Positions 54,782 to 55,169 of a DNA stretch of 64,000 nt are shown here, piece after piece. The translations under genes were made by a program, and so were the position numbers. Source of the DNA: Eledone cirrhosa (lineage: Eukaryota); NCBI GenBank assembly GCA_964016885.1, contig OZ024747.1:75206001-75270000 (forward strand), written 5' to 3'. Numbering within the stretch: the stretch's first letter is position 1; every line of letters starts with the position of its first letter. The notes beneath the pieces were generated by a model. That model did no database searches and had not been told where the DNA came from. It saw nothing but the letters and a program-made list of their open reading frames with translations.

Positions 54782-55169
54782 ATGGAGGAGAAGAAGCGAC
54801 CATGCAGGCTCCGTCTCCATTCTTTAATGATAATAATTATTGTTATTACTACAGTCAACCTAATGGCTACCGTTGATGCTTCACTCCCATCTGCACCTGA
54901 GAAACTTACAATATCACACATTAAATATGATTCTGTTCAGTTATCATGGGATAAATCTAAATCTGGAAATGTGTTGTCATACGTTATACGATATCGGCCT
55001 TACAAAGGCAGCAGGGATTTCAAGGAGATAGCTGACATTAAAAAAACTAAGGGATTTGTTGTACATCCACTCAAACCGTTTACCAGGTATGAATTTAAAG
55101 TTTTGGCAATAAATAAAAATGGATGGAGTGATCCGAGTGATTCTGTACTGGAATTAACTGCCCCCGCTG
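54782..55169 (+). CDS. Lar: Fibronectin type-III exon with an N-terminal signal-peptide-like leader; probably part of the LAR-family gene (alternative first coding exon and/or internal exon via the acceptor at 54854/54855)
   Basis: LPSAPEKLTISHIKYDSVQLSWD...SYVIRYRP...FKEIADI...LKPFTRYEFKVLAINKNGWSDPS is an FN3 domain resembling LAR FN3-1; phase-1 donor G|gttagt at 55169; leader MEEKKRPCRLRLHSLMIIIIVITTVNLMATVDA with atcATGG context. Confidence 0.8.

Follow-up and report, generated by a model that had tools for sequence, protein, structure and literature searches.

Genomic locus of LAR in Eledone cirrhosa

The window is a stretch of 64,000 nt from Eledone cirrhosa (GCA_964016885.1, OZ024747.1; G000:C7:75206001-75270000), to which the next 200 kb were added with the window numbering continued. 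Octopus LAR proteins map to this region exon by exon on one strand, from Ig2 (16122) via FN2 (120733) to D2 (~206600, continued numbering). The gene is a LAR-family (type IIa) receptor phosphatase gene that encodes Ig domains, FN3 repeats, a membrane span and two phosphatase domains in this order. The mapping covers the window and the 200 kb downstream. The 264-kb region from Ig2 to D2 contains no N.

An overview of the features is given in Table 1. The Ig3 exon scores 108 bits to PTPRD Ig3, shares 87 of 89 residues with Octopus LAR and is joined directly to FN2 in relatives; the FN2 of E. cirrhosa begins beyond the window. A leader and FN1, encoded in one exon, are found between Ig3 and FN2, inside an intron of 89 kb. 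This is the expected place of FN1.

Table 1 Features at and around the FN1 exon of E. cirrhosa LAR. Positions refer to the window, or to the contig with continued window numbering in brackets.
Feature	Position	Strand	Remarks
LAR Ig3 exon	31521..31790	+	phase-1 donor; boundaries by spliced mapping
Upstream non-coding stretch	54637..54781	+	partly conserved with cuttlefish-type DNA; start placed by eye; likely 5'UTR or proximal promoter
Leader, 33 codons	54782..54880	+	predicted signal peptide
Candidate phase-1 acceptor AG	54853..54854	+	9.8 bits; use not seen
FN3 domain, LAR FN1 ortholog	54881..55169	+	tree, fold, position
Splice donor GTTAGT, phase 1	55170..55175	+	6.3 bits
Candidate microexon	G000:C7:75282883-75282897 (76883-76897; L011)		outside the window; splice scores
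Alternative last (tail) exon	G000:C7:75305312-75305466 (99312-99466; L013)		outside the window; similarity, phase, open frame
First FN2 exon	G000:C7:75326733 onward (120733)		outside the window; likely partner of the donor after 55169

Two similar open frames are located in the window at 16853-17536 (plus strand) and 62863-63768 (minus strand), which we take to resemble terminal parts of retrotransposon ORFs of the LINE type. The stretches at ~22800-28500, 41800-44400 and 59150-59980 consist of long simple-repeat arrays rich in AT and of two tandem repeats with longer units. All three show repeating translations, and the first two also a strong GC skew.

Leader and upstream DNA

The first-pass annotation had described the FN3 reading frame as extending upstream to an ATG in strong context, and this is what is found. 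The ATG at 54782 (atcATGG), the first one of the stop-to-stop frame 54704-55174, heads a sequence that reads MEEKKRPCRLRLHSLMIIIIVITTVNLMATVDA and then SLPSAP and that stays open to the donor after 55169. The leader opens with a basic segment, has LMIIIIVI as its core and closes with V-D-A; its net charge is +3 and its 8-residue hydropathy 4.05 according to a simple hydropathy-and-charge rule, not SignalP. A leader-grade hydrophobic core together with a basic n-region is found in 0/353 open, non-repetitive ATG frames of the same intron (from 2066 ATGs). Signal peptidase follows the -3/-1 rule, i.e. small residues at -3 and -1. The E. cirrhosa leader agrees with the pattern of a cleaved signal peptide (basic n-region, h-region, V-D-A) and is predicted to be one. 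Cleavage would take place after A33, with S34 as the mature start, and would be followed by secretion; alternatively, the leader could be an uncleaved anchor.

Conservation of the leader in other cephalopods, proposed earlier as a check, is seen in Octopus RefSeq models and in cuttlefish-type proteins. With the Octopus leaders, 21 of 29 aligned residues are identical, and the cuttlefish-type proteins also have the MEEK start and a hydrophobic core. In the cuttlefish-type genomic ORF P0320, the leader is contiguous with FN1. The 51 residues upstream of the P0320 methionine were back-translated and compared to the DNA upstream of 54782 with frameshifts allowed, resulting in a score of 32.7 and a best local match that ends at 54709. 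This score is equalled by 0/247 random intron windows and 0/150 shuffles, and the matching words are located in three different frames. A plain tblastn search with the upstream frame of P0320 missed the region, and the match was recovered by frameshift-tolerant scoring alone. Because the P0320 residues match with frameshifts, the sequence upstream of 54782 is regarded as conserved and non-coding. The internal promoter would lie in the intron ahead of 54782. At the start of the conserved stretch, an ATG-TGA (54637-54642) is present that is possibly a minimal upstream ORF; P0320 has Met-Trp at this place, in frame with its leader.

Identity of the FN3 domain

The best blastp matches of the exon fall at LAR FN1, and PTPRF FN1 is the best LAR-family match among solved structures (38 bits). 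The phylogenetic reconstruction was based on 51 domain rows from the E. cirrhosa exon and 11 LAR proteins. A 97/93 split separates the FN1 side, which includes the exon and also one long-branch non-FN1 row, from 38 rows of later repeats. The AlphaFold model comprises a 7-strand FN3 domain with a pLDDT of 78-92 per block from residue 31 and a low-confidence helix over residues 10-28. Many FN3 folds can be overlaid on the predicted domain, FN domains of the LAR family among them, and matches to it in the ESM Atlas are generic FN3 clusters only. The exon is LAR FN1 itself, the ortholog of the first FN3 repeat.

A homolog search of the 129-residue peptide against longer proteins yielded 0/606 candidates, and a search with residues 1-126 of P0123 gave nine matches, all of them unrelated titin or protogenin. 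The orthologs are cluster members and not cluster representatives.

LAR architectures in relatives

A total of 174 LAR-family proteins was classified, with many isoforms per species (isoforms of one species are not independent) and with two large clusters sampled at 15 listed members each, of 27 (main Octopus cluster) and 37. Among the cephalopod proteins (n=27), 19 proceed from Ig3 to FN2, two start with leader and FN1, six are partial or otherwise arranged, and none combines a complete Ig3 with FN1. The other molluscs (n=51) comprise 36 proteins of the Ig3-FN2 type, six with Ig3 and FN1, three with leader and FN1, and six partial ones. Ig3 and FN1 are found together in 92 of the 96 proteins from non-molluscs, a set of mostly teleost fish plus one annelid and one spider; the remaining four are partial.

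Four of the 19 cephalopod proteins that skip FN1 are ORFs of 1902 aa on single Logan contigs of 6-8 kb. Since such ORFs on contigs of this size must be spliced, the skip is more than a modelling habit. The long form of E. cirrhosa would likewise lack FN1 and join Ig1-3 straight to FN2, as shown in the proteins of its relatives. The exclusivity of Ig1-3 and FN1 is not mollusc-wide, because six mollusc proteins retain both Ig3 and FN1, namely two RefSeq isoforms of Physella and GenBank models of Lottia, Solemya, Sinanodonta and one Pomacea.

An FN3-first receptor lacking the Ig domains had been suggested for this locus, and its counterpart is present in two automatic RefSeq models, XP_052827295.1 (Octopus bimaculoides, Lar isoform X6) and XP_029640735.1 (O. 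sinensis, Lar isoform X11). Both start with MEEKRAYRLSLHSLMIIIII, followed by FN1 and FN2 without any Ig domain, and both are 70.6% identical to the leader-FN1 peptide of E. cirrhosa. Leader and FN1 likewise come first, with no Ig domain, in the RefSeq models of Pomacea canaliculata, Mytilus galloprovincialis and M. trossulus. Their leaders are unlike the cephalopod leader by eye, and the one of Pomacea may be a separate exon.

Two further observations concern Octopus isoforms. P0001 and P0005 skip two FN3 exons (166556-178239, continued numbering), which recalls the skipping of FN4-7 in vertebrate PTPRD (excerpt of PMC12598525). A microexon AQRNK, placed after Ig3 by several Octopus models including those of O. 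sinensis, was not found in E. cirrhosa between 31790 and 120733.

Short leader-FN1-tail proteins and likely splicing partners of the exon

Among the 150 matches listed in a scan of cluster representatives, four are single-domain matches (62-69% identity) and the others multi-repeat proteins. The former include a Sepia pharaonis model and near-identical proteins in which the leader MEEKQSYWLCFFTLAVV directly precedes FN1. In four cuttlefish-type Logan proteins (15 contigs), FN1 is joined to a tail exon that ends with a stop codon. Two of these proteins (four contigs) start at MEEK; the combination of leader, FN1 and tail amounts to 164-170 residues from MEEK and has no membrane anchor. Three other proteins of the same cluster (37 contigs) read through the FN1 donor unspliced. 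The junction suggests that the cuttlefish-type contigs represent RNA.

The tail exon is also found in E. cirrhosa, 44 kb downstream (E 7e-11 within the region and 2.4e-4 in the whole genome). It has a phase-1 acceptor of 6.7 bits and an open frame of 51 residues to the stop codon. Its conserved end lacks a usable donor (-2.9 bits), and an AATAAA follows ~200 bases after the stop (99671). A basic pair (RR in E. cirrhosa, KR in the cuttlefish-type proteins) and one cysteine are kept. As a guess, they may serve as a processing site and as a dimer link, respectively. The layout of a secreted isoform, i.e. leader, ectodomain piece and stop before the membrane span in spliced form, is thus seen in the cuttlefish-type contigs; E. 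cirrhosa has the conserved exon, the phase and the poly(A) signal. The predicted short product of E. cirrhosa comprises 180 residues, and 185 if the candidate microexon is included. Among 265 candidates, this exon of 15 nt, which reads ARISE, ranks first in splice scores (acceptor 11.6 bits, donor 6.2 bits), and the cuttlefish-type proteins P0338 and P0329 carry AQRISE after FN1. Another candidate, 'EDPNR' at 111379 (continued numbering), was dropped due to a weak donor and no matching tail.

The donor after 55169 (CTG/GTTAGT) has a score that is reached by 2% of 6298 intronic GTs. The FN1 donor, the microexon, the tail acceptor and the FN2 acceptor are all in phase 1, and the microexon, the tail exon and the first FN2 exon are likely partners of this donor. 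For the in-frame FN1-FN2 splice, the phases fit in E. cirrhosa, and the join itself is seen in gene models of relatives.

Four sequencing runs from one study (X1-X4), none recorded as RNA, contain the stretch. The large runs X1-X3 cover the exon end to end and continue through 55169. Run X4 (88 Mb of contigs, kind not recorded) includes one contig of 323 bases that spans 54849-55169; its match to the genome ends precisely at the donor, beyond which it has two unaligned letters. This fits splicing at 55169 as a weak hint. No joint or loose end is listed among the run contigs over the stretch.

Preferred reading and alternatives

In our view, it is highly probable that transcripts which start at an internal promoter use the exon as their first coding exon and that it is not part of the long receptor, with Ig1-3 and FN1 as alternative tips and with two fates of leader and FN1. 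The upstream promoter would give rise to transcripts in which Ig1-3 is spliced straight to FN2, i.e. to a long form without FN1. From the internal start, leader and FN1 would be produced and would likely have two fates. Spliced 65 kb on to FN2, they would yield an Ig-less, otherwise complete receptor phosphatase of the kind annotated in two Octopus species. Spliced 44 kb on to the alternative last exon, they would yield a protein of ~180 residues without a membrane anchor that would be secreted. Either Ig1-3 or FN1 would form the ligand-binding tip on one body that extends from FN2 to the phosphatase domains. The first-pass annotation included neither a long form lacking FN1 nor a short product with its own last exon beyond the window.

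We consider it unlikely that the exon has a dual use, in which it serves as a hybrid with its own start and is also entered from Ig3 at the AG 54853-54854, at least as a minor form, to give an Ig1-3-FN1 receptor with the linker VNLMATVDAS. As noted earlier, the canonical acceptor position before (A/S)LP carries no AG. The AG within the leader had been called weak and phase-1 compatible; the phase is right, but the site is not weak. With a matrix built from the 28 acceptors of the gene itself, its score exceeds 20 of the 28 real acceptors (leave-one-out) and is reached by 26 of 3928 intronic AGs; over four matrix lengths it is stable, above 19-23 of the 28. A usable in-frame acceptor for a hybrid exon is therefore present. 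In addition, the RefSeq isoforms of Physella retain Ig3 and FN1, in a GenBank model of Pomacea Ig3 is followed by ALPGSP where RefSeq has the leader, and hybrid exons are a described class (10.1101/2021.05.27.446076; PMC11797052). The proteins argue against dual use: FN1 is present in 0/19 cephalopod proteins with a complete Ig3, all of which proceed from Ig3 to FN2, and use of this AG was not seen in any of the LAR-family proteins classified. The X4 contig is genomic to 54849 without mismatch and carries genomic bases over the six bases 5' of the would-be Ig3/AG junction, where the end of Ig3 would match three of six. The pyrimidine tract may also be mimicked by T-rich codons of the hydrophobic leader. 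As the AG looks like an acceptor, minor dual use is left with some low probability.

The Sepia pharaonis models P0317 and P0332 combine Ig1-2, half of Ig3, and leader and FN1 in one chain. A cryptic donor, CAA/GTAAGA, is located inside the Ig3 exon of E. cirrhosa (31625-31633, cut 31627) and scores 8.5 bits versus 7.0 bits for the real donor. Because the cut point fits this cryptic donor and both models end in low-complexity sequence, we tentatively read them as mis-predicted chains.

An exon that feeds only the short secreted product in E. cirrhosa, as a nested transcript without any other LAR exon and without an Ig-less receptor being made, appears improbable. The sole transcript-type junction seen from FN1 leads to the tail exon, and the evolutionary rate of FN1 exceeds that of the other FN3 exons, both of which favor this reading. 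RefSeq models from two Octopus species, a snail and two mussels nevertheless continue from FN1 to FN2, and the phases of this join fit in E. cirrhosa. The short form is known from cuttlefish-type contigs only and the FN1-FN2 receptor from gene models only, with no species showing both from transcripts.

Very improbable, and close to refuted, is a decaying FN1 leftover after skipping in the long form, with a leader that arose by chance and RefSeq starts that are artefacts. FN1 is the fastest-evolving FN3 exon of the gene, with 68 of 95 residues (71%) identical to Octopus versus 87-100% for the other FN3 exons, and in the whole gene one non-FN3 exon alone is as diverged (72-75%). This divergence and the lost canonical acceptor would be expected of a leftover. 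Decay is contradicted by the open frame with in-frame indels only, the predicted intact fold, the MEEK start and hydrophobic core common to octopods and cuttlefish, the lack of any comparable leader among the 353 null frames, the conserved upstream DNA and the spliced contigs.

The idea of a diverged duplicate, with the canonical FN1 at another place in the gene (suggested earlier to lie downstream of the window), has nothing but the divergence of the E. cirrhosa copy in its favor and, barring an exon missing from the assembly, is refuted: the region is free of N, a profile of FN1 identifies a single FN1-grade frame within the 264 kb (128.9 bits, inflated as the window copy is inside the profile; the next, at 36.7 bits, is an FN3 exon of the gene), genome-wide searches give no other place that exceeds 43% identity to the domain, and the long forms of relatives lack FN1. 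Because no second FN1 is found in the 264 kb or genome-wide, the exon is FN1 and not a duplicate.

Elsewhere in the genome, FN3-coding frames with 30-43% identity to the queries form a dense array on the minus strand of G000:C10 at 12.93-13.03 Mb (L002-L009). Our guess is that this array probably belongs to a titin- or twitchin-like gene.

Comparison with known systems

The published systems are compared here on the basis of excerpts of the respective papers. The closest counterparts of an internally started E. cirrhosa receptor are the two Octopus models, which share the orthologous leader, FN1, FN2 to the phosphatase domains, and the lack of Ig domains. They differ in that they do not include the short terminal-exon product, and no printed description of them was found. 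The literature search returned no paper on mollusc or cephalopod LAR isoforms, with most subscription journals outside the search, and the search on leech LAR yielded nothing on isoform structure.

In C. elegans, the Ig-less LAR form PTP-3B is made from an independent promoter, differs in its roles from the long form (PMC4418752; PMC7281833) and has five FN3 domains (PMC4418752). It resembles the cephalopod receptor as an Ig-less LAR with its own start, from a promoter that would be internal in E. cirrhosa. In contrast to PTP-3B, the cephalopod short receptor gains FN1, which the long form lacks. As the short receptor owns a domain absent from the long one, the cephalopod forms are alternatives and not a simple truncation. 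A rat liver LAR isoform with a 5'UTR in intron 11 is a truncated, tissue-restricted transcript from an intronic promoter; it starts further 3', and a swap of N-terminal modules is not described in the excerpt (PMC2674045).

The small LAR ectodomain product LARFN5C binds LAR and promotes neurite outgrowth, and secreted Ptprd and Ptprs transcripts are also described (PMC13486334; PMC1431701). LARFN5C corresponds to FN5, whereas in the cephalopod product FN1 follows a leader of its own and is joined to a dedicated, conserved tail exon. No soluble LAR-family form made of FN1 with its own leader was met in the literature examined. Hybrid first/internal exons (10.1101/2021.05.27.446076; PMC11797052) are similar in that an ancestrally internal exon is used as a first exon. 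Since internal use was not seen in cephalopods, the cephalopod exon looks fully converted to a first exon.

The Ig-less receptor is already in databases and is less surprising for this reason; the mutual exclusion of Ig1-3 and FN1 is new, and so is the short, conserved product. More tentatively, and somewhat short of probable, coleoids and probably several other mollusc lineages may have split the LAR tip into exclusive modules chosen by the promoter. The FN1 promoter may also make a conserved secreted 'mini-LAR' with a dibasic site and a cysteine, whose role in neural wiring would be that of a soluble ligand or decoy.

Heparan and chondroitin sulfate proteoglycans bind LAR-family receptors at their first Ig domain (PMC13486334). 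In vertebrates, most synaptic partners of the LAR family also bind Ig domains and NGL-3 binds FN1-2, with the Ig and FN1-2 sites on one chain (PMC12598525; PMC13486334). Because these ligands use different domains, the two cephalopod receptors would, by analogy, read different ligand classes: binding of proteoglycans and Ig-dependent partners would be confined to the long form and absent from the FN1 form. The short form would by the same analogy be a soluble ligand or decoy, with soluble FN1 competing with the FN1 receptor or acting as a ligand itself. If this holds true, the choice of promoter would set the ligand class that is readable by the LAR of a neuron. Ig- and FN1-dependent signalling would be naturally split in animals with large nervous systems, and a soluble FN1 product that is conserved would add a new candidate for a ligand or decoy.
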